Shown: positions 9,881 through 56,178, counted from the first letter of the stretch. The stretch is 64,000 nucleotides of DNA from a virus (IMGVR_UViG_3300043172_000799:92944-156943), one strand, 5' to 3'. Translations and numbers: made by a program. Notes: generated by a model not told the origin, from the sequence alone.

Positions 9881-9909
9881 AACATAACACATCACGCATC
9901 ATTTGTCAA
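9881..9909 (-). promoter_or_regulatory. putative promoter (TTGACA-17-TATGTT)
   Basis: Minus strand TTGACA 9909..9904. Followed by GGAGG RBS and ATG at 9851. Confidence 0.35.
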
Positions 9910-27932: not shown

Positions 27933-28721
27933 TTATTCTCCTTTTCCTCTACTGTTATCAAAAGAGTGTTTGTTGAAGTACCTCTCTTCTGCTTCTTTTC
28001 TAACTTTAATAGCATCTTTTTTATATATAAAGGAACCTAAGTGTTTCCGTCCGGCACCCATACCTATACGAGCTATCCACCTCTTTTGTTTGTCATTCCA
28101 TACAACACCGGCAATTCCAGAGGTGTTATTTGACATCAAGGCTCTGTTCATATTGTTTTGGCTTCTTGTAGTAGGTCTTAGATTCCTGTTAATATTATTT
28201 AGACCATTTCCATCTTTATGATCAGGCATGTGTCCTTTCTCTGATGGGCATAGTATTTGATGCATCATAATAGTCTTCTTACCATAAAACTTTTGTTGAT
28301 CTATTGGGATGTTAGCAACAGCATAATATGTATTTGCCTTTGCTACTCTAAACCAGCAGATGCTTTTCACTTTATCATAATTTTCTTTATCTATAATAGC
28401 GTAATCATCACAGTTGAAGAAATAAATTTTAATGTAAGCACCACAATCTTCTGCAATGTTTATTTTGTGATTCTTAATGTGAGTTTTTCGTACAGCTTCC
28501 TTTTGTAGACAGCCACAACTCTTAGTTTTATTTCCTACCAAGTCTGCTCTTCTAATAGATCTTATACTCCCACTGGGACATGAGCATTTACATGAGTACT
28601 TCCAATCAGAAGGGCAGATATTTGCCTCGCCATTAATCTTACTATCCTCATCCACCTCAATAATGGTAAGTCTCCCAAATTCCATTCCTGCTTCTAAGTA
28701 CTTAGGATACTTTGCCATCAA
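27933..28721 (-). CDS. free-standing HNH-AP2 homing endonuclease
   Basis: 'CKCSCPSGS...SCGC'. HNH 'DHKDGNGLNNINRNLRPTTRSQNNMN'. AP2 'SGIAGVVWNDKQKRWIARIGMGAGRKHLGSF'. Confidence 0.8.
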   Translation of the reverse strand: MMAKYPKYLEAGMEFGRLTIIEVDEDSKINGEANICPSDWKYSCKCSCPSGSIRSIRRADLVGNKTKSCGCLQKEAVRKTHIKNHKINIAEDCGAYIKIYFFNCDDYAIIDKENYDKVKSICWFRVAKANTYYAVANIPIDQQKFYGKKTIMMHQILCPSEKGHMPDHKDGNGLNNINRNLRPTTRSQNNMNRALMSNNTSGIAGVVWNDKQKRWIARIGMGAGRKHLGSFIYKKDAIKVRKEAEERYFNKHSFDNSRGKGE

Positions 28722-29830
28722 ATAGCCTTTATCAACTTCTCTGAGGGGAAGTCCTCATAGTATTCCGCTACAGTCCCCACACTTCCATCTAGCCATTTAA
28801 AAGCAAGATCTTTATATGGTGTACCTACAACTAAGGTAGCAAATCTTTTTCTATTTGCTAATTCCTTATCAGAAAAGCTCTTAAGATATTTCAAGAATCC
28901 TTCTGCTTCTGCCATGTACAGATCATACTTATCCTTTACAGATGCCAAAACATTTTTGTATTCAGGAAAGTAAGTAAGCACCTCAGCCATCTCATTCTTT
29001 CTTATGATATCCAAAGCTCTCTTTTCTGTAAAGATCCCCTCTCCCCTCATATGGTGCAAATGAACGTATACTTCACCTTTAATCTTAATTCGATTGAAAT
29101 ATTTATCACAAACTACAATACCTTCTTTATCAGTCCCAAAATCTTGTACCAGATCTATACAATCCTCAAGATTGGCTAGATCATATTCTTGCAGACTACT
29201 CACTATAGCACTTATGGCAAGATGGTTCTTCTCTTCCCCTGTTTTATTGTCCTTGGAAGAAAGATAGAATATCTTTGGAGAATCATATCGTACCACCACT
29301 CTGTTAGAGGGAGTACACAATTCAAAGATATGCGTTTCATCTTCAAGATCATTAAGGAAGCTGAAATTCTGTACATTGTAATTAACCATTAAGGTATTGA
29401 TGAACAGTGCTCCAAAACTGTCAATAGGAATTCCTTCATCATTGAAAGTAAGTTCCTGAAGCCCTGCATTAAATCCATTTATTGTCCCATTGGTAGCAAT
29501 GAACCATCCACCATTTATACAGTATAGTTTTATGATGCTTCCATCTTCCTTAGAAGTAGCTCGTGCAGATTTCCAATCAATTTCTGGAACGTAACTCTCA
29601 CCATAATTTCCAAACTTATGAAAGGGATGACATACTATTTCCCAAGTACCTTCCCGAAGGATAATTCCTCTACATTCTCGCACTAATGGCTTGTGAAAAT
29701 CTGATTTAATTTGGTTATACTTAAATATGACTAATCCGTTATCTTTCTTAACCTTTATAGCATAATCTCTTTCTAAAAGCTCCTCATAGTTCTCTGGATG
29801 CTCTTTACAAAACTCTTGTATTTTTAACAT
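28718..29830 (-). CDS. rnlA: RNA ligase 1 (T4 RnlA-like)
   Basis: 'VRECRGIILRE' matches T4 Rnl1 'ALECRGIMFEM'. Motif I 'TSKEDGSIIKLY' matches 'TKEDGSLVS'. Confidence 0.8.
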   Translation of the reverse strand: MLKIQEFCKEHPENYEELLERDYAIKVKKDNGLVIFKYNQIKSDFHKPLVRECRGIILREGTWEIVCHPFHKFGNYGESYVPEIDWKSARATSKEDGSIIKLYCINGGWFIATNGTINGFNAGLQELTFNDEGIPIDSFGALFINTLMVNYNVQNFSFLNDLEDETHIFELCTPSNRVVVRYDSPKIFYLSSKDNKTGEEKNHLAISAIVSSLQEYDLANLEDCIDLVQDFGTDKEGIVVCDKYFNRIKIKGEVYVHLHHMRGEGIFTEKRALDIIRKNEMAEVLTYFPEYKNVLASVKDKYDLYMAEAEGFLKYLKSFSDKELANRKRFATLVVGTPYKDLAFKWLDGSVGTVAEYYEDFPSEKLIKAI

Positions 29831-30132
29831 TTGTGCTCCTTAGTAATTAAATTTCTTTTTCCATTTATATAAAGTTTGGAAAGGCATCTCTATTGTGCTA
29901 GAAATTTCTGGAATGGTCAACCCTTTCTCTTTAAAATACTATTAAGCCTATCTACGTGCTCAGAATAAGAAAGTCTCCTTATAGTGTGTTCTATACCATC
30001 ACTGCCAGTATAAGATAAAAAATTCTCCCTCTTTTAGGGACATGTATTCTCTCATTTTTCCAGCATATTTTATGTCCATTATACGCTTTTATTTGTTCAT
30101 CTGACAAAACTCTCATAAGAATCTCCTTTTTT

Positions 30133-31014
30133 TTAAAATTCAGTGTGGTAAATTCTATCATCAATATTAAATACGGTAAGTCCCATACTTTTCCATTCTC
30201 TGACCATAATCGGACGATCATCAAATACACCACACACAACAAAGCCCTTTCTGGCAACATGCTGGTCAAATAATTCCCGTTTAATAATAGCATCTTTCCT
30301 ACTGTCACCTTTGGCTCGCATGTATAATCCCTCGTATGGGATGATATAATCATCTAACCACTTTTCAGTAAGTTCTCGGCAAGAGCTATCTCTCCCAGAC
30401 ATAATGTAGATCGTATTTCCGGTTCTATGTAGTAGTCTCAAAATTAGAGCTACATCTACCCTTAACTTATCTTCTCCTACCCGATCCCACATAAAAGGTT
30501 TTCTACCATTCATTTGAGCAAGGGAGCCATCCAAATCAAAAATATAAAGTTGATTTAAATTTCCATCTCTGGGGTCTGCCTGATGCTTTTTGTTTTCCCT
30601 AACATCAAAATGTCTCATCCAAGTATTTTGAATGATACTAGCACCAAGACTATTCTCACGCTTAAGATCGTTCTCAATACATTTTTCCAAAGGCACATCT
30701 AGAAAACTTTTAATTTCAAATTCCACAGCCGGATAGTACCCTTTAATTACTGCCTTTCTCTCTTTGATTTTTTCCATACTTAAATTCATGGAATCAATAA
30801 TTGCATTCTTCCCACTATCCAAAATAGATAGAATCATTTCCTTCTCAACCTTGGAGATGAACTTCTCATTTTTGGCATTAAAATGAATATTATCAAACAT
30901 CAGCCGGAGATCGTCCCTGCATACTCGTTTCCAATTAGGGTCTTGAGCACGTTTCTTAGCATACGTACTCTTCCCTGATCCTTGAATACCACGCATAAAT
31001 AATACTTTACTCAC
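30133..31014 (-). CDS. pnk: polynucleotide 5'-kinase / 3'-phosphatase (T4 Pnk-like)
   Basis: N-terminal P-loop 'FMRGIQGSGKSTYAKK'. C-terminal HAD phosphatase 'LYIFDLDGSLAQMNGR...IMSGRDS...KGDSRKDAIIKRELF...VFDDRP' is collinear with T4 Pnk 'VIFDVDGTLAKMNGR...VVSGRES...QGDTRKDDVVKEEIF...AIDDRT'. Confidence 0.85.
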   Translation of the reverse strand: MSKVLFMRGIQGSGKSTYAKKRAQDPNWKRVCRDDLRLMFDNIHFNAKNEKFISKVEKEMILSILDSGKNAIIDSMNLSMEKIKERKAVIKGYYPAVEFEIKSFLDVPLEKCIENDLKRENSLGASIIQNTWMRHFDVRENKKHQADPRDGNLNQLYIFDLDGSLAQMNGRKPFMWDRVGEDKLRVDVALILRLLHRTGNTIYIMSGRDSSCRELTEKWLDDYIIPYEGLYMRAKGDSRKDAIIKRELFDQHVARKGFVVCGVFDDRPIMVREWKSMGLTVFNIDDRIYHTEF

Positions 31015-31264
31015 TAGTTCCCTCCTGCACTAATAACATAGGGGTGATAGCCAGAGTATTGGCAGAGAAGACACCTACGTTGTACACGTAAAACAATTTT
31101 CCATTATTGGACACAACAATATGACTATCATTATCTATTCGATATATTGTATCTTCTGGAAAAGCTTTAAGTACAGCTTCTCTGCATTTTAGCTCATCAT
31201 ATCCATCACATCCTACAAATGTAAAAATTGATAGCGTGATAATTATCATTAATAATTTTTTCAT
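31007..31264 (-). CDS. small secreted lipoprotein
   Basis: Start refined to Met19 'MKKLLMIIITLSIFTFVGC' (signal peptide plus lipobox-like FVGC), preceded by GAAGGAGA. Confidence 0.45.
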   Translation of the reverse strand: MKKLLMIIITLSIFTFVGCDGYDELKCREAVLKAFPEDTIYRIDNDSHIVVSNNGKLFYVYNVGVFSANTLAITPMLLVQEGTSE

Positions 31265-31336
31265 ACATTCTCCTTCATTCTTTTTAATAAGTATACCATG
31301 ATAATGTTTTCTTGTCAAGTATATTTGTTAAAAAGG

Positions 31337-31352
31337 AGGAGCCGAAGCTCCT
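31337..31352 (-). terminator. GC-rich hairpin plus T-run (intrinsic terminator candidate)
   Basis: 'AGGAGCcgaaGCTCCT' stem-loop 9 nt downstream of the SPFH gene stop, followed on the minus strand by CCTTTTT. Confidence 0.5.
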
Positions 31353-31360
31353 ATACTTAT

Positions 31361-32635
31361 TTACTGGTTCTTAACTGTTTCAGAAATATTCATGAAAGAT
31401 TCAAGACCAATGGCATCAAAAGGATTCATGGGAGATCCTTCACCACCACCAAAGATCATCATATCAGGAAGATCTATATTTGACATATTCCTAGATACTA
31501 CATCAGCGATTTTGAAATTCCATTCTGCTTTCTGCTGTGGTGTAAGTCCTGCTCTTACTTTTAATGCATTGGCATCTGCTTCAGCTTTTTCTTTAACAAG
31601 TCGCTGTGTAGCTGACTCTCTGGCTTCAGCAGTTGCAAGTTTAGCAACATTAAGATCCCTTTGGGCATTCATCTCAGCAACTTCTTTTGCCTGTTCTGCT
31701 TTAAGTTTAGCAACTGCCTTCGCTTTCTCAGCCTGTGTTACGGCAGTGATCTTAGCAACTTCTTCAGTAGCTCTTGCTTTGGCAATATCGGCTTCACCCT
31801 GAGCTTCAGCAGTTAAAGCATCCTGTACGGCTTTTTCAGCATTTGTAATAGCAACAGCTTTTTCCTGTTCCGCTTTTTTCTTCTGGGAGATCAAGCTATC
31901 AATAGTTTCATCATAATCAATATCTTTTAAAGTATGGTTAACAAGCTCAAGACCATACTCTTTGAAGATACCTGGTTTGATAATAATAGGAAACCCATCA
32001 GCATCAGTTTTAATAACTACTCTTGTAGAAGATGCCATGATTACATTACCTTCTTCATCTTCTTCATTTGTTGGAGTTAGTACTTTTTCAATAATTGTTG
32101 CATACAACCCATTGGCAATCTGATCTGTTATCAGTTGTGAAAACTCTCCACGGCGTGTTGAATATGTTTCATCAGCTTTAAATGTGGAAGCAGTCTGTTT
32201 AGAAACTTCAATTATCCATTGCCGTACCTGTGCAGATAAAGAAGCAAATCCTCTATAGTTTCTATGTATCTTAATAATAGGGACATCTCCTAAAGGCATT
32301 CTCCACTGGGTGACAGAACCTATCTCTGCTGTACCACCATCACCAAACCGAACAGTGGTTGCATTAGTTTCTGCACCTTTACCACCATCAAGCGCATCAT
32401 TTGATAAGTACGTCTCTGATGTTCTGTAGTACTCTGTGATCTTACCAAACATCTGAAGGTAAAGCCCCTCTTCTGCTCTTGTGGTTAGCGTTCCAGTCAA
32501 GGTCGCCTGTTTTACATGGATCTCTCCACCATCTACTGTCTCAACAATTGACTGTGAGAAGAGTAACACTACAATAAGTGCAATAACTCCTCCCCCTATA
32601 ATTCCTATTCTATTTGGGTTCATTTTTATATTCAT
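31361..32635 (-). CDS. SPFH/band-7 (flotillin/HflK-like) membrane protein
   Basis: N-terminal TM 'IGIIGGGVIALIVVLLF'. Central beta-rich domain. Long Ala/Glu/Lys-rich heptad region 'AEAQGEADIAKARATEEVAKITAVTQAEKAKAVAKLKAEQAKEV' typical of HflK/flotillin. Confidence 0.55.
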   Translation of the reverse strand: MNIKMNPNRIGIIGGGVIALIVVLLFSQSIVETVDGGEIHVKQATLTGTLTTRAEEGLYLQMFGKITEYYRTSETYLSNDALDGGKGAETNATTVRFGDGGTAEIGSVTQWRMPLGDVPIIKIHRNYRGFASLSAQVRQWIIEVSKQTASTFKADETYSTRRGEFSQLITDQIANGLYATIIEKVLTPTNEEDEEGNVIMASSTRVVIKTDADGFPIIIKPGIFKEYGLELVNHTLKDIDYDETIDSLISQKKKAEQEKAVAITNAEKAVQDALTAEAQGEADIAKARATEEVAKITAVTQAEKAKAVAKLKAEQAKEVAEMNAQRDLNVAKLATAEARESATQRLVKEKAEADANALKVRAGLTPQQKAEWNFKIADVVSRNMSNIDLPDMMIFGGGEGSPMNPFDAIGLESFMNISETVKNQ

Positions 32636-32648
32636 ATATTATTTCTCC

Positions 32649-32882
32649 TTATTTTGTTTCTTCCATAAATTCGGAAACTTTGGCTTTTTCTTTCTGTACT
32701 TTCTTAAGGTCTACATCCTTCACATTCTTATACAATTCATTTTCAATTTCTATTTCTTCTTTTCTTTTTCTTATTTCCTCCCTCTTTTCATCTCTACCTA
32801 TTTCATTCCATTTCTTAAGTCCCCATTTATAAAATATATAGAAAGCTAATAATGGAATACCAATACTTAATATTATTGACAT
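32649..32882 (-). CDS. small single-pass membrane protein
   Basis: N-terminal TM 'SIILSIGIPLLAFYIFY', then a charged coiled coil. Confidence 0.45.
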   Translation of the reverse strand: MSIILSIGIPLLAFYIFYKWGLKKWNEIGRDEKREEIRKRKEEIEIENELYKNVKDVDLKKVQKEKAKVSEFMEETK

Positions 32883-32895
32883 TTATTTCCTCCTA

Positions 32896-33048
32896 ACTAA
32901 ACATATTAAATGCAACTCTCCATAAAATAACTAAAACAACTACAAGACATGTGTTCCTTAAACTGAATCCCAATCCCCCAAAATCATACACAGGACATCC
33001 CAATGCAGATGTTACTGCACCTATGACAAAAGCTCCTATCATATACAT
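32896..33048 (-). CDS. 50-aa hydrophobic miniprotein (not in ORF track)
   Basis: ATG 33048, preceded by AAGGAG. MYMIGAFVIGAVTSALGCPVYDFGGLGFSLRNTCLVVVLVILWRVAFNMFS. Directly downstream of promoter 33079..33107. Confidence 0.35.
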
Positions 33049-33078
33049 ACTTTATCTCCTTATCTTTAAGATGTTTTA

Positions 33079-33107
33079 AATATAACACATCTATTTAGTT
33101 TTGTCAA
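33079..33107 (-). promoter_or_regulatory. sigma70-type promoter (TTGACA-17-TATATT)
   Basis: Minus strand TTGACA 33107..33102, TATATT 33084..33079. Its 22-nt core is duplicated at 33225..33246. Confidence 0.5.
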
Positions 33108-33217
33108 TCCCTATTCGGGGATACTTTAAATAATATTCCTTTTCACTAGCTACCTTTTTGCAGTGTTCATGAGAAACATGTGATACCTCCTAACTTACTC
33201 ATTTCTAAGTTAATCTA

Positions 33218-33246
33218 AGAATAGCACATCTATTTAGTTTTGTCAA
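33218..33246 (-). promoter_or_regulatory. second copy of the promoter element (TTGACA-17-TATTCT)
   Basis: Identical 22-mer 'cacatctatttagttttgtcaa' with a weaker -10. Confidence 0.3.
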
Positions 33247-33371
33247 CTAGTTTTTTGTCACGTACAGTTCCTCCAGAAACACAACCACCATCAGCTCCTC
33301 TATATCCATATACACAATACCCAACTAAACATCGTTTAGATCTCCCAAGATACAAAGGGCATACTTTAGGT

Positions 33372-33941
33372 TTATTTTCCATAAGCCAGCCTTGGATACA
33401 GCATTCCTATCTTTGACTGTAAACCGGCTATGGTTGAATCATTGTAAATAACACTGTCAGGAACGATACTGTCTATTTCCATTTCAGAGGAATGTGTATC
33501 GATAGAGATAAGTCCCTCTCGTTCCAGTTTAATAATATGTCCTCCCATAGATTTAATGGTGTTGGCTTCATTTAAGAATCTAACATCAGATATAACTACA
33601 TTTGGCTTCTCTGTAAAAGAATCATACCAGTACTGAAATCTTTTTACCCAGATATCGGACCCTATCAATTCCTTGAATAATGGTAATATCTCTTGTAGCC
33701 TTTGCCTGAATAATTCTGTGCCCATAGCTTGTTGTGCCTGTCTGGGAGAGATATTCCATCTAGGGTCAATTGTCTCTTTATATTTTCCATTAACCCATTC
33801 ATCATCCCAAAGGAAGATTTCTGCCACTGATGTTTTAATTGGATCTGCAAATTTGTATCTGGTAAATCCAAATTGATCTATCAAATAATCTGCTACCTCA
33901 TCTTTCCCTGATCTTTTTTTTCCTACTATTCCTAGTATCAT
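33372..33941 (-). CDS. deoxynucleoside monophosphate kinase (T4 gp1-like)
   Basis: 'MILGIVGKKRSGKDEVADYL...YKFADPIKTSVAEIF' matches T4 gp1 'LIFLSGVKRSGKDTTADFI...YQLAGPIKDALAYAW'. Confidence 0.75.
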   Translation of the reverse strand: MILGIVGKKRSGKDEVADYLIDQFGFTRYKFADPIKTSVAEIFLWDDEWVNGKYKETIDPRWNISPRQAQQAMGTELFRQRLQEILPLFKELIGSDIWVKRFQYWYDSFTEKPNVVISDVRFLNEANTIKSMGGHIIKLEREGLISIDTHSSEMEIDSIVPDSVIYNDSTIAGLQSKIGMLYPRLAYGK

Positions 33942-34933
33942 TCCATAACCACCTTATCCAAATAATTCATAAACCACATTCGTGCTTTCACACTCATGGC
34001 TTTCCCTACATCTTTAGGCTCCAAACCATTCTCATTTAATACATCCATTTCTTCCATAATAATATCTCTGTTAACCCACTTAAGGAAATCACTCATCATC
34101 TGGATTCTGGGTGTTTCAGATGCAGAAGTGAAAACCTGTTCAATAGCCTGATTCAATCTGTTCTCTGTGACTGCATATTCCACAAACTCATTGACTGAAT
34201 TCATCTTTTCAATGTCCACAGGAGCTACTGTCTTAACTTTAGATGCCGAGTGCTTCTCCCCCTTAGTTTTAAAAATATGATCTCTGTGTCCATTCTCATC
34301 ATAGTGTGACCACACAATCCCTTCCCCAATACCATGTGCATCAAAATGCTTTGAGAAAGGACATTCCTCCTCCACTTCATCCACTAACTTAATCATTTCT
34401 GCCTGTGCAATCTGTGAATAGTTAAAATCAATCTCCAGTTCATATGTGAGGAAATCAAAGATATTATACACATCAAGATCCTCATTCATAAAATCAGGCT
34501 GTGTGTAGAAATGATCTGCTTCATCTTCAATTCCTGTATATTTGATTGCAAAGACCACAAATCGTTTAGAGAGATGATTTAAAGCAACTCCTGTCTGGAT
34601 ATTTCCACCACACCATTCTCCGAAGATAGTGGTGATATATCCATCTTTATGTAGATAATCAAATATTTTATACCAAAAATCTTTTCTATTGCTGGCAAAG
34701 AAAGCAAATCCTGCATTATCTTTCTCTGGAGTAATTATATTCTTTCTACTCTGATACCAAATTCCATCTGCCGGTGTATGGCATATCCCTGCATTCGTTC
34801 CGTGGAGCTTAATTGCCCCTTCAAAAGTTAGCGTAGGGTGTGTAGCTCTAACCTCTCCTTCTGGCACATGGCATACATTTCTAATGATGTGCCGGTACTG
34901 TCCTATTTTTGTAAAACTAATAAATTTTTTCAT
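33938..34933 (-). CDS. RNA ligase 2 (T4 Rnl2-like)
   Basis: Motif I 'AIKLHGTNAGI' matches Rnl2 'EKIHGTNFSL'. 'IFGEWCGGNIQ' matches 'VFGEFAGPGIQ'. Motif V 'IFKTKGEKH'. 331 aa, similar in length to T4 Rnl2. Confidence 0.8.
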   Translation of the reverse strand: MKKFISFTKIGQYRHIIRNVCHVPEGEVRATHPTLTFEGAIKLHGTNAGICHTPADGIWYQSRKNIITPEKDNAGFAFFASNRKDFWYKIFDYLHKDGYITTIFGEWCGGNIQTGVALNHLSKRFVVFAIKYTGIEDEADHFYTQPDFMNEDLDVYNIFDFLTYELEIDFNYSQIAQAEMIKLVDEVEEECPFSKHFDAHGIGEGIVWSHYDENGHRDHIFKTKGEKHSASKVKTVAPVDIEKMNSVNEFVEYAVTENRLNQAIEQVFTSASETPRIQMMSDFLKWVNRDIIMEEMDVLNENGLEPKDVGKAMSVKARMWFMNYLDKVVME

Positions 34934-35148
34934 ACATCCTCCCCATCTTGTAAAACATCTTTTAATACGGCTCTTTGTACATCACTCCAACTAGCAACCT
35001 CTTCTAGTATCTTAGGCTCCTTCATTAGCAAGCACATAATGATTTCTGTTGCTTCTTCTGTTCCATATTTCTCCACAATAGCTTCTGCCAATTCATCCCA
35101 TGACCATGCATTAGGATCTTCTAATAGTTTTTCAAGTGCTTCTACCAT
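34930..35148 (-). CDS. hypothetical protein
   Basis: 72-aa ORF. Confidence 0.3.
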   Translation of the reverse strand: MVEALEKLLEDPNAWSWDELAEAIVEKYGTEEATEIIMCLLMKEPKILEEVASWSDVQRAVLKDVLQDGEDV

Positions 35149-35149
35149 C

Positions 35150-35545
35150 TTATATATCCTTTTTATGTACAGCAGTGTACCCTTTTACATAAACATTGAA
35201 ATTAAAATATAATTCTTCTATAGAATCAGCTTCACAAGATATAGTGAGGCTGGAGCAAAAGAACATATGCTCCCATTCTACAGAAATGTTTTTAGATACC
35301 ATGTAACCGTGAAATGATCCGAGCAACTCATTCAGATAGTCACATTCGGTATTTTTATCATAAAATATAAAAGCTGTTTCCACTCCAAGCATATACTTTT
35401 TTGTTTTCTTATCATACACGATATCAATATCATTAGCTTGGTATAAACTAGCTTCACCACTACAAGAGCTTATTCCCCAGATGAATTTTAGATTTCTTTC
35501 AGCATAACTAAAATAATCCCTAATTTTGTATATTAAACTTCTCAT
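35150..35545 (-). CDS. hypothetical protein
   Basis: 131-aa ORF. Confidence 0.35.
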   Translation of the reverse strand: MRSLIYKIRDYFSYAERNLKFIWGISSCSGEASLYQANDIDIVYDKKTKKYMLGVETAFIFYDKNTECDYLNELLGSFHGYMVSKNISVEWEHMFFCSSLTISCEADSIEELYFNFNVYVKGYTAVHKKDI

Positions 35546-35874
35546 CTATTTCTCCTTTGCAATACTTTCCAATATTTCCTGGTACCCTTTCTATCAACAT
35601 ACTCCAAAATTACTTTTGCCCACATTTTCGGGCTAAGTAACTTAATTCCTGTTCTAGAGTCAAGTTCTTCCCAATAGACTTTTGGAGTGTAGTACCCACC
35701 TTCTAGAAGATAAGTTAAAGATTGTCCTGCCATCCACTCTTTTCTACCTGTAAATCTTTCCTCCAGCTTATCTAATACAGATAGGATTACACCATCTATA
35801 TTAGAATAAATGTTGGATGTAGTAACTTTGATAGCAGATCTGCATCCTTCTTTTCCAACTAGGTACACAATCAT
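35542..35874 (-). CDS. hypothetical protein
   Basis: 110-aa ORF. Confidence 0.35.
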   Translation of the reverse strand: MIVYLVGKEGCRSAIKVTTSNIYSNIDGVILSVLDKLEERFTGRKEWMAGQSLTYLLEGGYYTPKVYWEELDSRTGIKLLSPKMWAKVILEYVDRKGTRKYWKVLQRRNR

Positions 35875-36260
35875 GGCTTTCCCTCATACTTTTCTTTCAA
35901 TTCTAAGTACGTAGCCTTTTCTTTAGCTTCCTTTAGAGCCTTGGCTTTCTTATCATTTTGAACTTGTACATTCATCACTTTCTTTTTAGCTTTTAATACC
36001 TCTGCTTTTTTCTCCTCTCTATACTCCTGATTGTATAAAAAATTAATATCTAAGTAGAAACCATAATCCTCATGACCACCATAAGCCCAGCTCTCTTCAC
36101 CACTAAATGTAATTCCATTACTACCTAATTCAGTCACAAAGAGGTGTTTCAATCCATCTATTTTTTTAATATTATCATTATACCATTGTAGAGCTTCTTC
36201 TGCTTCCTCACAAACTTTATCATACTCTTCTAAGAACTCATAATATCTTTCTTCAGTCAT
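35871..36260 (-). CDS. hypothetical protein
   Basis: 129-aa ORF. Confidence 0.35.
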   Translation of the reverse strand: MTEERYYEFLEEYDKVCEEAEEALQWYNDNIKKIDGLKHLFVTELGSNGITFSGEESWAYGGHEDYGFYLDINFLYNQEYREEKKAEVLKAKKKVMNVQVQNDKKAKALKEAKEKATYLELKEKYEGKP

Positions 36261-36448
36261 AGATCCTCCTTCTCTGTTAGATCTATGTATGGTTGTAATT
36301 CTTTTAGTTTCTGCTCAGTCCTTTTTATTAATTGTTCGTACTTTTCCTTTTGCTCTGAAGCCCATGCTCCCTCTAATTTCCCTGTGGAGATGACCAGTAA
36401 ATACTCTAGTCTATTTTGTTCTTCAATTATTATATCAGCTATTATCAT
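36257..36448 (-). CDS. hypothetical protein
   Basis: 63-aa ORF. Confidence 0.3.
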   Translation of the reverse strand: MIIADIIIEEQNRLEYLLVISTGKLEGAWASEQKEKYEQLIKRTEQKLKELQPYIDLTEKEDL

Positions 36449-37174
36449 TTACTCCTCCATATCACAATTAACCAAATTATCTATAACATTTGGTTCTTTT
36501 GAAAATATAGGTGCTTCATTTAAAAACTCCCATCCATTCTCAGTCTTTACACAGAAATTTCCATTCTTCCATTTATCTTTGTAGTCTTCCCATGTAATTT
36601 GGTGCTCATCCCACAACATCTGTTTGATGTCATTAGTATTCTTTTTATGCATTTTACTATGAGAGAACACAGATTGTCCTGCAAGCTGAATGGAATTCCT
36701 TTTCCAATCCATACTTCTCCACACAAAATAATTATTCACTTCTTCACGGGGAATGTTGAATACTCTGCTATCGAAATAAGCAGTCTTTGAGGAATTATAT
36801 ATACTGCTGTAGTAATGATTAAACTCCGCAGTAGCAATAGAAGCAGAGACACTACACATCTTCTGTATACCATAATCAAACCATGCATCCGTTGTAAGTT
36901 TGTCATAATCTGTGATTAGAATGGAAATTTCATCTGATTGCATATATGCACATTTAGCTCCCTGAATTTCTTCACAAAGCTTGATGGTGGTTGCTCTCAT
37001 CATAGCATTTAAATTTTCATCGAACGGTCTATCCATACCTTTTGTAATAGAATGAAAGCACTTCCCATCTAAGCGACAGATAACTGGTGTTCTCCTAGTT
37101 AAATACGTTCTAGCTCTCTTTTCATAATTATCTTTCATTCTATCTGCAATTTGTGTTTTATCCATCGACCTCAA
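36449..37174 (-). CDS. Thg1-like protein (tRNA-His guanylyltransferase family, 3'-5' nucleotide addition)
   Basis: 'RTPVICRLDGKCFHSITKGMDRPFDENLNAMMRATTIKL...AYMQSDEISILI' is collinear with Thg1 'IVVRIDGKKFHEF...KPNDENALKLMNACA...AFGESDEYSFIL'. Confidence 0.75.
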   Translation of the reverse strand: MRSMDKTQIADRMKDNYEKRARTYLTRRTPVICRLDGKCFHSITKGMDRPFDENLNAMMRATTIKLCEEIQGAKCAYMQSDEISILITDYDKLTTDAWFDYGIQKMCSVSASIATAEFNHYYSSIYNSSKTAYFDSRVFNIPREEVNNYFVWRSMDWKRNSIQLAGQSVFSHSKMHKKNTNDIKQMLWDEHQITWEDYKDKWKNGNFCVKTENGWEFLNEAPIFSKEPNVIDNLVNCDMEE

Positions 37175-54135: not shown

Positions 54136-56178
54136 TTAAAAATTAATTTTAATTACTCTTGAAAAATTTCCTTCAATCTTAGTGGTTATACTATTGCGCT
54201 GTGTTGAAGAAAATCCCAAACCTGATAATTGTCTATCTGAAGATGCAACTCGCATTTTTGACCCCATAGCTTCGAAGACTCTTTTGTGCTCCATAAGCTT
54301 AGTATTTAAATGCTCATTGTAGAATCCTCTTGGGGCATTCTCATTTTTGCATTCATCCATGAAGAAGAAATAATGTTTATTCATAATCTCTTCCTGACCA
54401 TCCCAATAATTTGGTGACAGCATTGCTACAGATACTTTTGTGAACTTATTAGTATTTACTCCCCAGATCTCTTTAGAGGAAGTTGTAGAATCTAGAGATT
54501 TAATAAACTTAATGCCATTCTCTCTACTAAACTCAAGGGTAGCTACAGGAACATTCTCTTGGCTTCTAAGCTCTTTTGGGTATTCATAGGAATAAATCTC
54601 TCCCTCATATTCAATCTCGGCAGTAAATCCACTTCTGCCTCCATTATGGGAATAGTTGTGTACGAAGAATTCATATCTTCCCTCTAGCATCTTATGCTTG
54701 TCAGTCCACGTAATATTCTCTACTGCCGGACCATTTGGGCGTTCTCTCATAGGGCGCTGGATATCTACATCAAGTTTCCCACTAGTTCTGCTGGTACGAT
54801 TACCATAATAAAGATGCTCTCCACCTCTAGGTTCCCGTACATGTGCATCAAAGTCATTATCATTGTCCCGATCATCATTCCATTGTATTGAAAATCTGAG
54901 AACACCATCTACATCTCCACCGGCACTCTTAACATTCTGTTTCATACTATCTGCAACATCACCATTATATGCCCACGAAAAATTATTATTCCACTGTAAA
55001 ATACTCTTGGCATCTTTGTCAGTTGGAGCTACTAAACTCATGAAATTCCCTTTGTGTCTATTTTCCATCATAACCTCTACATTGGTAGCTGTAGGAAGAA
55101 TATTCTCTACAAAATCCTCAATAGATACTTCCTCTACCTTATTGAACTTTTTAGGATTCTCAGCCACTTCATCCTTAAGTTCATCAAAGATAGATCCACC
55201 CATTTTATTCTGGGCATCTCTATTTGTCCACAATACATTATTGATAGTGATGTCTTCAAGTACTGCGTGTTTTCTTCCAAGAGATTTCTCCAGCCCCAAT
55301 TCTATCATAGTCTTCTCTGCCTGTTCAACCATCTTCTTGGTGAAAATAGCTTTGGGTCTTTTGTAATTGGAAGGAGCCATTACTCTTTCAAACTTTTTTA
55401 CAGCCTCATCCAGATCCATCTCTTTAGATAAATCAATTAAAAGTGTCCCAACAGCCGTGTTTCGAATTTTAGCTATAGAACTTGCTCCTGAAGTTACCCA
55501 ACACCAGTTGTCCTTTTCTGAGTCGGGAACATCCATAAAAAGTGTTTTGTACTTGATGAACTCAGAAATAGCCTTTCTGTGCTCTTTTCCCCGATAAATA
55601 GATTTCTGATCAATTAGATCTAGAAAGGTATTTCCGGCTTCTAAGGTAAGCTCTACCATAGATCTCTGGAATACCTGTTTAAAGGAGAGAGCAGTTCCCT
55701 GTAAATCTCCTGCCGATTTGCTTGTAGTATTTACAAATTTAGCAGGAAGTTTGTAGTGAAAATGTTCCCATGTAAGAATGCTTTTGTCTTCCAACTGTTC
55801 CCGATTATAATCTGTACCCATGTTTGCTTCTTTAGTTACAAAGATATTTCGTATCGGAGCAGACTTTACCAACGCAGACATCTTCTCTGTTACGACAGCA
55901 AATGTAGGATCAGACACTTCCATATCCCAAATTGAAATCAGGGAGTTGTTCTTGACCACAACCATATTTCCGAAAGGTCTAATAAACTGTCTACAACAAT
56001 TACAGTCAAATTCTCTGCGTTCCCTATGGATCTCGTTTGTACCCTCTGGAAAACTATCCAGATAGGTGTGCCATAAATCATCTTTAGAAACATCTGTCAC
56101 AAAAAGCCTGTCCTGTCCAACCAACATCATGGCAATGTGCTTTTGCATCTCTTTCTTAAATACCTTAAAGTTACTCAT
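54136..56178 (-). CDS. large hypothetical protein (680 aa)
   Basis: Long uninterrupted ORF. 'DCNCCRQF' Cys cluster. No family recognised. Confidence 0.5.
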   Translation of the reverse strand: MSNFKVFKKEMQKHIAMMLVGQDRLFVTDVSKDDLWHTYLDSFPEGTNEIHRERREFDCNCCRQFIRPFGNMVVVKNNSLISIWDMEVSDPTFAVVTEKMSALVKSAPIRNIFVTKEANMGTDYNREQLEDKSILTWEHFHYKLPAKFVNTTSKSAGDLQGTALSFKQVFQRSMVELTLEAGNTFLDLIDQKSIYRGKEHRKAISEFIKYKTLFMDVPDSEKDNWCWVTSGASSIAKIRNTAVGTLLIDLSKEMDLDEAVKKFERVMAPSNYKRPKAIFTKKMVEQAEKTMIELGLEKSLGRKHAVLEDITINNVLWTNRDAQNKMGGSIFDELKDEVAENPKKFNKVEEVSIEDFVENILPTATNVEVMMENRHKGNFMSLVAPTDKDAKSILQWNNNFSWAYNGDVADSMKQNVKSAGGDVDGVLRFSIQWNDDRDNDNDFDAHVREPRGGEHLYYGNRTSRTSGKLDVDIQRPMRERPNGPAVENITWTDKHKMLEGRYEFFVHNYSHNGGRSGFTAEIEYEGEIYSYEYPKELRSQENVPVATLEFSRENGIKFIKSLDSTTSSKEIWGVNTNKFTKVSVAMLSPNYWDGQEEIMNKHYFFFMDECKNENAPRGFYNEHLNTKLMEHKRVFEAMGSKMRVASSDRQLSGLGFSSTQRNSITTKIEGNFSRVIKINF

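Follow-up and report, generated by a model that had tools for sequence, protein, structure and literature searches.

The 64-kb window of viral DNA analyzed here (IMGVR_UViG_3300043172_000799:92944-156943; all positions below are counted from its first letter) comes from an uncultured phage of ~168 kb, whose hosts are likely Spirochaetota and probably marine spirochaetes. All genes of the window, including all features of the locus described below, lie on the minus strand. This locus is a short operon that comprises, in order, the tandem promoters P1 and P2, an open reading frame (ORF) of 51 amino acids (aa) termed orf51, a gene for a 77-aa membrane protein (32882..32649), a gene for a 424-aa SPFH/Band 7 protein (32635..31361), and an intrinsic terminator. 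The last two genes, encoding the SPFH protein and its 77-aa partner, constitute the conserved functional core of the operon. An AGGAG-type ribosome-binding site precedes every ORF of the locus. An earlier interpretation made from the nucleotide sequence alone (the sequence-only reading) had placed a promoter, several ORFs, and a terminator in this region; all of them were found on the minus strand within a few bases of the proposed positions.

Identification of the 424-aa protein as an SPFH scaffold is virtually certain. The sequence-only reading had described it as an SPFH- or band-7-like protein with an N-terminal transmembrane (TM) segment and a long helix rich in Ala, Glu, and Lys, and had suggested a search with PF01145; the description was borne out by Pfam, structure prediction, and Foldseek. 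The search gave a Band_7 (PF01145) match of 56.1 bits, above the cut-off of 23.6 bits (E 6.2e-15), that spans residues 33-268 and is the sole Pfam match of the protein. The match to phrog_11908, a family with no assigned function, covers nearly the full length (E 2.9e-42). The AlphaFold2 (AF2) model of the single chain, built with 42 homologs, has a mean predicted local distance difference test (pLDDT) score of 81.9 and contains the SPFH fold, the absence of which had been named as a reason to abandon the proposal. The modeled chain consists of (i) a TM helix at residues 7-27, (ii) an alpha/beta SPFH domain at residues 31-241 with a beta-hairpin insert, (iii) an uninterrupted helix at residues 243-362, (iv) a helix at residues 366-385, (v) a low-confidence segment rich in Gly and Pro, and (vi) a terminal helix at residues 406-422. 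The uninterrupted helix of 120 residues is about 180 Å long and contains 27% Ala, 13% Glu, and 13% Lys. The Gly/Pro-rich C-terminal segment belongs to the most conserved sequence of the family despite the low confidence of its model. An N-terminal hydrophobic segment near residues 10-28 was observed in 37 of the 38 family members analyzed.

Foldseek comparison of the model with PDB (E<=1e-3) returned 49 matches, all of which are SPFH assemblies (prohibitin, HflK/C, erlin, stomatin, QmcA-YbbJ, and flotillin) or the related vault protein. When the family profile was compared with solved proteins, HflC was the best match, weak at E 4e-4, followed by prohibitins; the region aligned with HflC takes in the insert of the second SPFH subdomain. 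The NCBIfam scan (E<=0.1) identified no HflK, HflC, or flotillin model, and its only result was a spurious match to the TolA coiled coil. We conclude that the 424-aa protein is a genuine SPFH protein and represents a subfamily of its own, and the architecture seen in the model is that of the ring- and cage-forming SPFH proteins HflK/C, prohibitin, stomatin, and flotillin.

In the 77-aa protein, an N-terminal TM segment is followed by the basic motif KWGLKKW next to the membrane and by a helical tail with a high content of charged residues. The same design recurs in the 72-83-aa proteins whose genes lie directly 5' of SPFH in the three loci that were inspected first, each with an uncharged N terminus, one TM segment, and a basic W-x-KK-x-W-K-K-A stretch. 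About 50% of the tail residues are charged, and the tail carries a K-x-V-D ... E-V ... K ... F motif. A hidden Markov model (HMM) of the partner, constructed from 12 proteins and run on every six-frame ORF of all related loci (numbered with the prefix L), matched the window and 13 other loci, both phage and cellular (L022, L023, L028, and L043 among the latter); each match is the ORF located immediately upstream of the SPFH gene on the same strand. A word-indexed search with the 77-aa protein retrieved the query itself only, and an exhaustive phmmer search with the partner alone against 1.84 billion representatives revealed nine further relatives of 70-77 aa (P0087-P0095). In all three inspected loci of these relatives, the gene directly downstream encodes an SPFH protein only 30% identical to that of the window. 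The linkage was recovered from both search directions and at 30% SPFH identity; thus, the pairing survives deep divergence, and the 77-aa protein is very likely a true functional partner of the SPFH protein.

An NfeD-like role had previously been suggested for the small TM proteins of the operon. By definition, NfeD proteins are ~140-150 aa long and contain an all-beta OB domain in addition to three hydrophobic stretches (PMC2636767). The candidate identity of the 77-aa protein as NfeD was rejected: no match to PF01957 was found at E<=0.1, and the AF2 model of the partner, built with 10 aligned sequences, is all-alpha, with helices at residues 2-55 and 59-76 and a pLDDT of 73. Considering its size, single TM segment, and predicted all-alpha fold, the partner is therefore not NfeD, though it occupies the same operonic niche. 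No consistent Pfam family was found across 21 partner members, and no PHROG, NCBIfam, or PADLOC model matches the 77-aa partner. PADLOC also revealed no defense-system match for the operon proteins.

The boundaries of the operon are set by two promoters and a terminator. Promoter P2 (33107..33079), the one proposed before, has the structure TTGACA-17-TATATT with a TG-extended -10 element and 11 of 12 consensus matches. Two further promoters had been overlooked, namely the upstream tandem copy P1 (TTGACA-17-TATTCT, TG-extended; 33246..33218) and a third strong promoter, P3 (TTGACA-17-TATACT, TG-extended; 31318..31290), which lies between the terminator and the downstream lipoprotein gene and starts the next transcription unit. 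P1 and P2 belong to a tandem duplication (window 33059-33246) with a spacing of 139 nucleotides, in which 22 nucleotides are identical (TTGACAAAACTAAATAGATGTG) and 49 nucleotides align at 80% identity. Between P1 and P2, a 9-codon mini-ORF, MFLMNTAKR*, with an AGGAGG ribosome-binding site can be read from the sequence (33179..33150); it could encode a leader peptide or be a mere remnant of the duplication. The terminator (31352..31328) consists of a hairpin, AGGAGC-UUCG-GCUCCU (31352..31337), with a 6-bp GC-rich stem, followed by CCUUUUU; the hairpin folds with -11.9 kcal/mol (z = -2.2). The Rfam scan of the leader and the intergenic regions detected no riboswitch or small RNA at E<=1.

In the window, 8 copies of the pattern TTGACA-N14-TGNTANNNT were counted, compared with 0.06 expected from shuffled sequences, none of which contained more than 2. 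All 8 sites are on the coding (minus) strand, each just 5' of a ribosome-binding site and a start codon. These near-consensus TTGACA-17-TGnTAnnnT sites were mapped at positions 9881, 16735, 31290, 33079, 33218, 43999, 57663, and 58315; three of the eight fall within the SPFH locus. A generic promoter scan of the region gave no enrichment (39 sites, 31.7 expected). Since the promoters are of the host sigma-70 holoenzyme type, we infer early transcription, and the eight sites would mark the early transcription units of this phage.

The two remaining ORFs of the region are not part of the conserved core. The hydrophobic ORF preceding the partner gene was present as proposed, its size being 51 aa instead of 50 aa. 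This ORF, orf51 (33048..32893), encodes two hydrophobic segments, has a good Shine-Dalgarno sequence, and is an annotated gene in the public record. It has no homolog in any related locus, hence it is not a conserved component, and it has no match in Pfam (NfeD included), PHROG, NCBIfam, or PADLOC. In some other phages (L002, L003, and L015), unrelated small membrane proteins are encoded at the corresponding place. Neither orf51 nor the downstream lipoprotein showed homology to the small membrane proteins or lipoproteins encoded near SPFH genes in other phages.

The lipoprotein-like ORF of 85 aa (MKKLLMIIITLSIFTFVGC; 31264..31007) has a predicted signal peptide and an FVGC lipobox-like Cys. 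Its true start is the ATG at 31264; the TTG at 31318 belongs instead to the -35 hexamer of P3. The predicted signal peptide and lipobox with the invariant Cys read MKKLLMIIITLSIFTFVG-C, and the Phe at position -3 is atypical in comparison with the lipoboxes of the Escherichia coli type. The stop of the gene (31007) overlaps the GTG start of pnkp (31014) by 8 nucleotides. Only one homolog was found among 5.8 billion proteins, P0085, which is 58% identical and keeps the lipobox Cys (...FTFTG-C); its gene likewise overlaps pnkp, and the C terminus encoded by the preceding gene is not SPFH. The lipoprotein was considered as a member of the SPFH operon and rejected, as it lies past the terminator, behind its own promoter P3, and overlaps pnkp in both known occurrences. 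Taken together, promoter P3, the pnkp overlap, and the context of P0085 show that the operon does not extend past the terminator and that a new unit opens with the lipoprotein gene. Thus, the proposal of a self-contained operon holds for the genes bracketed by promoter and terminator and fails for the lipoprotein, which it had included. An early lipoprotein with its own promoter is reminiscent of exclusion factors of the T5 Llp type.

Relatives of the core genes were found both in phages and in spirochaete chromosomes. The 5.8-billion-protein collection contains 82 relatives of the SPFH protein, several of them named after metagenome-assembled genomes (MAGs) of Spirochaetales, on contigs of up to 378 kb. 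Related viral loci lie on at least 15 distinct IMG/VR contigs of 63-313 kb, and related genome loci on 25 contigs, most of which are binned to Spirochaetota. The nearest cellular SPFH copies are 76-79% identical to the window protein. L044/45 are plainly chromosomal, with queA, ruvABC, signal peptidase genes, and smpB. L047/48, in which the SPFH proteins are 77-79% identical to that of the window, are also chromosomal, with oxidoreductase genes; here, a Peptidase_M48 (HtpX-like) gene is located directly upstream and a Trypsin_2/PEGA (HtrA-like) protease gene directly downstream of the SPFH gene (L047:7773-11385). An M48 homolog is likewise found upstream of the SPFH gene in L019. Two chromosomal Spirochaetales loci (L028:1575-5188 and L036:1757-5119), which also contain GGDEF/EAL and proline-biosynthesis genes, have a true ftsH (with M41, AAA, and FtsH_ext domains) directly upstream of the SPFH gene and differ in the downstream genes; in L028, the partner gene lies between ftsH and the SPFH gene.

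A cellular clade of ten loci keeps the same neighbors, namely DUF401, an SDF symporter, and a CoA-binding protein, which indicates vertical inheritance. In the neighbor-joining tree, the window protein groups with the cellular copies L019-21, inside a clade that also holds the phage copies L002, L003, and L005 and the cellular copies L022 and L023. Because phage and cellular copies are intermixed, the SPFH gene must have moved between spirochaetes and phages; the SPFH-partner pair, which occurs in spirochaete chromosomes as well, has likewise been exchanged between host and phage.

Two of the related viral loci have features of their own. In L004 (IMGVR_UViG_3300033146_003955), the closest phage relative, an insert of ~1.1 kb (L004:4637-5771) splits the SPFH gene exactly between residues 240 and 241. 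The two gene halves are still alignable, with 71% and 48% identity. The insert encodes an ORF with the LAGLIDADG-like motif WLGFIYADGYL and probably represents an intron that carries a homing endonuclease; it matched no group I intron model of Rfam. In L052, a phage-like contig of 37 kb, the partner and SPFH genes form a pair (L052:3001-5767). A 216-aa protease of the ClpP family, which weakly matches NfeD1b_N, is encoded two genes downstream; its candidate roles are those of a prohead protease or a protease associated with SPFH.

The window as a whole has a GC content of ~34% throughout and the gene content of large-phage replication and nucleotide metabolism: family A DNA polymerase, ribonucleotide reductase (RNR), a Dda-like helicase, DNA ligase, a UvsX-like recombinase, and NAPRTase. 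No tRNA genes were found in the 64-kb window, and no near-identical DNA was found in cultured phages. The neighbors of the SPFH operon are of the early type (dNMP kinase, Rnl1, Rnl2, PNKP, RNR, and DNA polymerase), so that the operon lies in an early nucleotide-metabolism block and not, as had been named as an outcome against the earlier proposal, among late structural genes. An RNA-repair toolkit encloses the operon (window 28718-37174, minus strand). It includes an Rnl1-type ligase (28718-29830), PNKP (30133-31014), an Rnl2-type ligase (33938-34933), and a Thg1-like 3'-5' nucleotidyltransferase (PF04446) at about 36449-37174; the dNMP kinase gene (33372-33941) is found in the same stretch. 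A 50-aa Cys-rich ORF (MENKPKVCPLYLGRSKRCLVGYCVYGYRGADGGCVSGG...; 33230-33382), annotated as a gene in the public record and without a family match, overlaps the end of the dNMP kinase gene and extends into promoter P1. Elsewhere in the window (54136-56178, minus strand), a 680-aa protein of phrog_1735 (E 1e-259), function not assigned, shares ~50% identity with proteins from phages of the Bacillus cereus group and from a Clostridioides phage-plasmid and is far more conserved than the DNA polymerase of this phage, which has at most ~25% identity to that of any cultured phage.

TM topology, the prediction of which had been suggested by the sequence-only reading, was predicted by the positive-inside rule, for the SPFH proteins using 38 family members. 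SPFH proteins carry on average 2.5 Lys and Arg residues before the TM segment and 1.6 after it, and acidic residues are enriched after it; this bias predicts an N-in, C-out orientation, the pattern of HflC. In the partner, ~0 Lys and Arg residues precede the TM segment and 3-5 are found within the 15 residues that follow it, which predicts N-out, C-in. We thus regard a periplasmic orientation of the SPFH domain as rather probable from these charge patterns. If both predictions are true, the bulk of the SPFH protein is periplasmic and the tail of the partner is cytoplasmic, and the two proteins could then touch each other only via the TM helices.

The best explanation overall, which we hold to be somewhat more probable than its negation, is that the early operon encodes an HflK/C-like, periplasm-facing membrane scaffold and its partner. 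The proposed course is as follows. The host RNA polymerase would transcribe the operon early in infection. The SPFH protein would oligomerize on the cytoplasmic membrane into a ring or cage like those of HflK/C or prohibitin, its bulk being periplasmic as in HflK/C. The TM helix of the partner may enter the transmembrane ring, with the charged tail extending into the cytoplasm. Such an assembly would fence off a membrane patch together with its resident proteins, of which membrane quality-control proteases of the FtsH/HtpX type would be the likeliest clients, and the effect would be to stabilize the membrane or phage membrane proteins until lysis. Protease clients are suggested by the ftsH and M48/HtrA-type neighbors of some cellular homologs, the weak affinity to HflC, and the predicted orientation; nonetheless, an FtsH-type protease as the client is a minority possibility, doubtful in itself, because protease adjacency is sporadic. 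Expression timing, topology, oligomerization, and client identity are thus the parts of this course that we infer; the gene structure, the SPFH fold, the linkage of the partner, the cellular homologs, and the separate unit of the lipoprotein are demonstrated by the analysis.

Several observations weigh against this explanation. The protease genes are found next to SPFH genes in few loci (ftsH in 2 of ~40 and M48 in 3), and the neighbors in the largest cellular clade are all unrelated genes of membrane and transport function (DUF401, SDF symporter, and CoA-binding protein). A single SPFH gene, with no K/C pair, is present in the window and in all related loci, and the HflK and HflC models of NCBIfam do not match the protein. 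The partner is missing from approximately 25 SPFH loci, among them those of the cellular copies that most closely resemble the window protein. The positive-inside rule is the sole basis of the topology and, if it holds, places the conserved tail of the partner opposite the SPFH domain. Finally, the likely assignment of the hosts to Spirochaetota comes from MAG binning, which can misplace phage contigs.

The orientation is the point on which a cytoplasm-facing, flotillin-like scaffold would differ, in which the SPFH domain and the partner tail would interact in the cytoplasm and organize microdomains for phage replication or assembly. The long Ala/Glu/Lys-rich helix of ~180 Å is indeed similar to flotillin coiled coils, flotillin structures are among the Foldseek matches, and the location of the conserved motifs of the partner in its tail would be sensible if the tail touched the SPFH domain. 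Nevertheless, the analysis of the 38 members places the N terminus inside and the bulk outside, neither a Flot/flotillin model match nor an NfeD2-type partner was found, and by sequence the family is most closely related to the periplasmic HflC; this alternative is improbable. Superinfection exclusion, in which an early membrane scaffold, perhaps aided by the lipoprotein and the neighboring small membrane proteins, would modify the envelope such that later phages fail to inject their DNA, has parallels in Imm and Sp of T4 and the Llp lipoprotein of T5. It would fit the small membrane proteins driven by strong early-type promoters and the early lipoprotein gene with its own promoter immediately downstream. 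The SPFH gene of the Vi01-like phage PhiSH19 adjoins an annotated superinfection-exclusion gene (PMC3220722), and a phage SPFH lipoprotein has been speculated to act in adsorption or DNA entry (PMC13239085). However, the SPFH-partner pair is inherited in ordinary chromosomal contexts of Spirochaetota, which argues for a general membrane function, neither the lipoprotein nor orf51 is a conserved companion of SPFH, and the operon proteins have no likeness to known exclusion proteins and no PADLOC match; a role in exclusion is of similarly low probability.

The same chromosomal copies bear on two further alternatives. That the operon is a passenger, a recently captured host gene pair with little or no role in infection, would agree with the 76-79% identity of the window protein to chromosomal Spirochaetaceae genes and with flanking genes that vary between phages, as expected for a mobile accessory cassette. 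It is quite improbable in view of the occurrence of homologs across several lineages of cultured phages and no fewer than 15 distinct viral contigs, the intact ORF with dedicated tandem strong promoters and a terminator, and the interrupted gene of L004, whose still alignable halves suggest maintenance. Control of lysis timing, with the small TM proteins acting as holin- or antiholin-like proteins whose clustering is regulated by the SPFH scaffold, is the least probable of the alternatives. The 77-aa protein is holin-like in its single TM segment and highly charged C-terminal tail, the SPFH gene of crAss001 is two genes away from a peptidoglycan hydrolase gene and has a small membrane protein gene upstream, and a Peptidase_M23 gene is located just upstream in L002. 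In the window, however, no lysis gene is nearby, the neighbors being RNA-repair and nucleotide enzymes. A holin-type role of the partner is unlikely because the early expression implied by the strong promoters of the sigma-70 type would hardly suit a holin, and because the partner is kept beside SPFH in chromosomal, non-prophage settings (RuvABC/SmpB and ftsH).

The HflK/C-like, periplasm-facing scaffold with its partner can be extended to a general proposal, namely a two-component SPFH system of Spirochaetota, not described before, in which a periplasm-facing SPFH protein and a 70-80-aa non-NfeD partner (predicted N-out, C-in) would have been repeatedly captured by large phages to control host membrane proteolysis of the FtsH/HtpX type or membrane integrity early in infection; in its entirety, this proposal seems unlikely. 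New in this work are the conserved non-NfeD partner, the close tie to Spirochaetota chromosomes, and the occasional ftsH/htpX/htrA neighborhood. The case is sound and fairly ordinary, a phage and its hosts sharing a membrane-organizing gene pair, since close relatives of both genes are found in spirochaete chromosomes. The gain is modest, as a partner family and a host link are added and no new principle. Being compact and well delimited, the SPFH and non-NfeD pair makes testable the question of whether phage SPFH cages manipulate host membrane quality control.

Among the known systems, HflK/HflC (SPFH3) form a periplasm-facing cage around the E. coli FtsH protease. The phage family resembles them in the N-terminal TM segment with a basic N terminus and predicted N-in, C-out orientation, in the SPFH domain followed by long helices, in HflC being the best sequence match among solved structures, and in two cellular family members encoded directly downstream of ftsH. 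It differs from them by the lack of an HflK/HflC match in NCBIfam, by a single gene in place of the K/C pair, by a much longer coiled-coil helix (120 residues), and by a small dedicated TM partner that is absent from HflK/C. Bacterial flotillins (SPFH2: FloT and YqiK) are similar in length, have a long Ala/Glu-rich helix after the SPFH domain, and are matched by Foldseek, whereas the phage family has no match to flotillin-specific models, the opposite predicted orientation, and no NfeD2 partner. The SPFH-NfeD operons (QmcA-YbbJ, FloA-NfeD1b, FloT/YqiK-NfeD2, and PH1511-PH1510) share the two-gene organization, with SPFH and an adjacent, co-evolving small membrane partner (PMC2636767); in contrast, the partner described here has 70-80 aa, one TM segment, an all-alpha fold, and no NfeD Pfam match.

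SPFH/Band 7 proteins of the same superfamily (phrog_11908 and phrog_200), function not assigned, are known from other phages: gp91 of crAss001 and its relatives, Aeromonas phages, the T4-like phages 44RR, Aeh1, and RB43, and the 'SPFH lipoprotein' of Vi01-like phages. Thus, the view of the sequence-only reading that phage SPFH proteins are uncommon was overstated, as such proteins are annotated in each of these groups and a PHROG (phrog_11908) for this family exists. SPFH ORFs in the T4-like phages 44RR, Aeh1, and RB43 have been reported since 2006 (PMC1524935) and are also described in Vi01-like phages (PMC3220722, PMC10892097), and similar ORFs are present in Vibrio phages as unannotated 'hypothetical proteins'. 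According to a 2026 paper, the reason for the presence of an SPFH gene in a phage genome 'remains unclear' (PMC13239085). No close match to the window protein was found in cultured phages. The best matches are to SPFH proteins of the crAss001 type, with ~27% identity, and to proteins of an uncultured phage of 462 kb, of Aeromonas phages, and of several phages of Vibrio; crAss001 gp91 aligns over 92% of the query. Both crAss001 and the 462-kb megaphage also encode a small membrane protein directly 5' of the SPFH gene. In crAss001 (L053:1703-3943), this is gp92 (63 aa), and a peptidoglycan hydrolase gene lies two genes downstream of the SPFH gene; in the megaphage (LR756500; L055:2668-4137), it is a 75-aa protein. 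Neither gp92 nor the 75-aa protein has detectable homology to the partner family. SPFH proteins of cultured phages are at most 29% identical to the window protein, whereas the lineage of the window has close relatives in the chromosomes of Spirochaetota.

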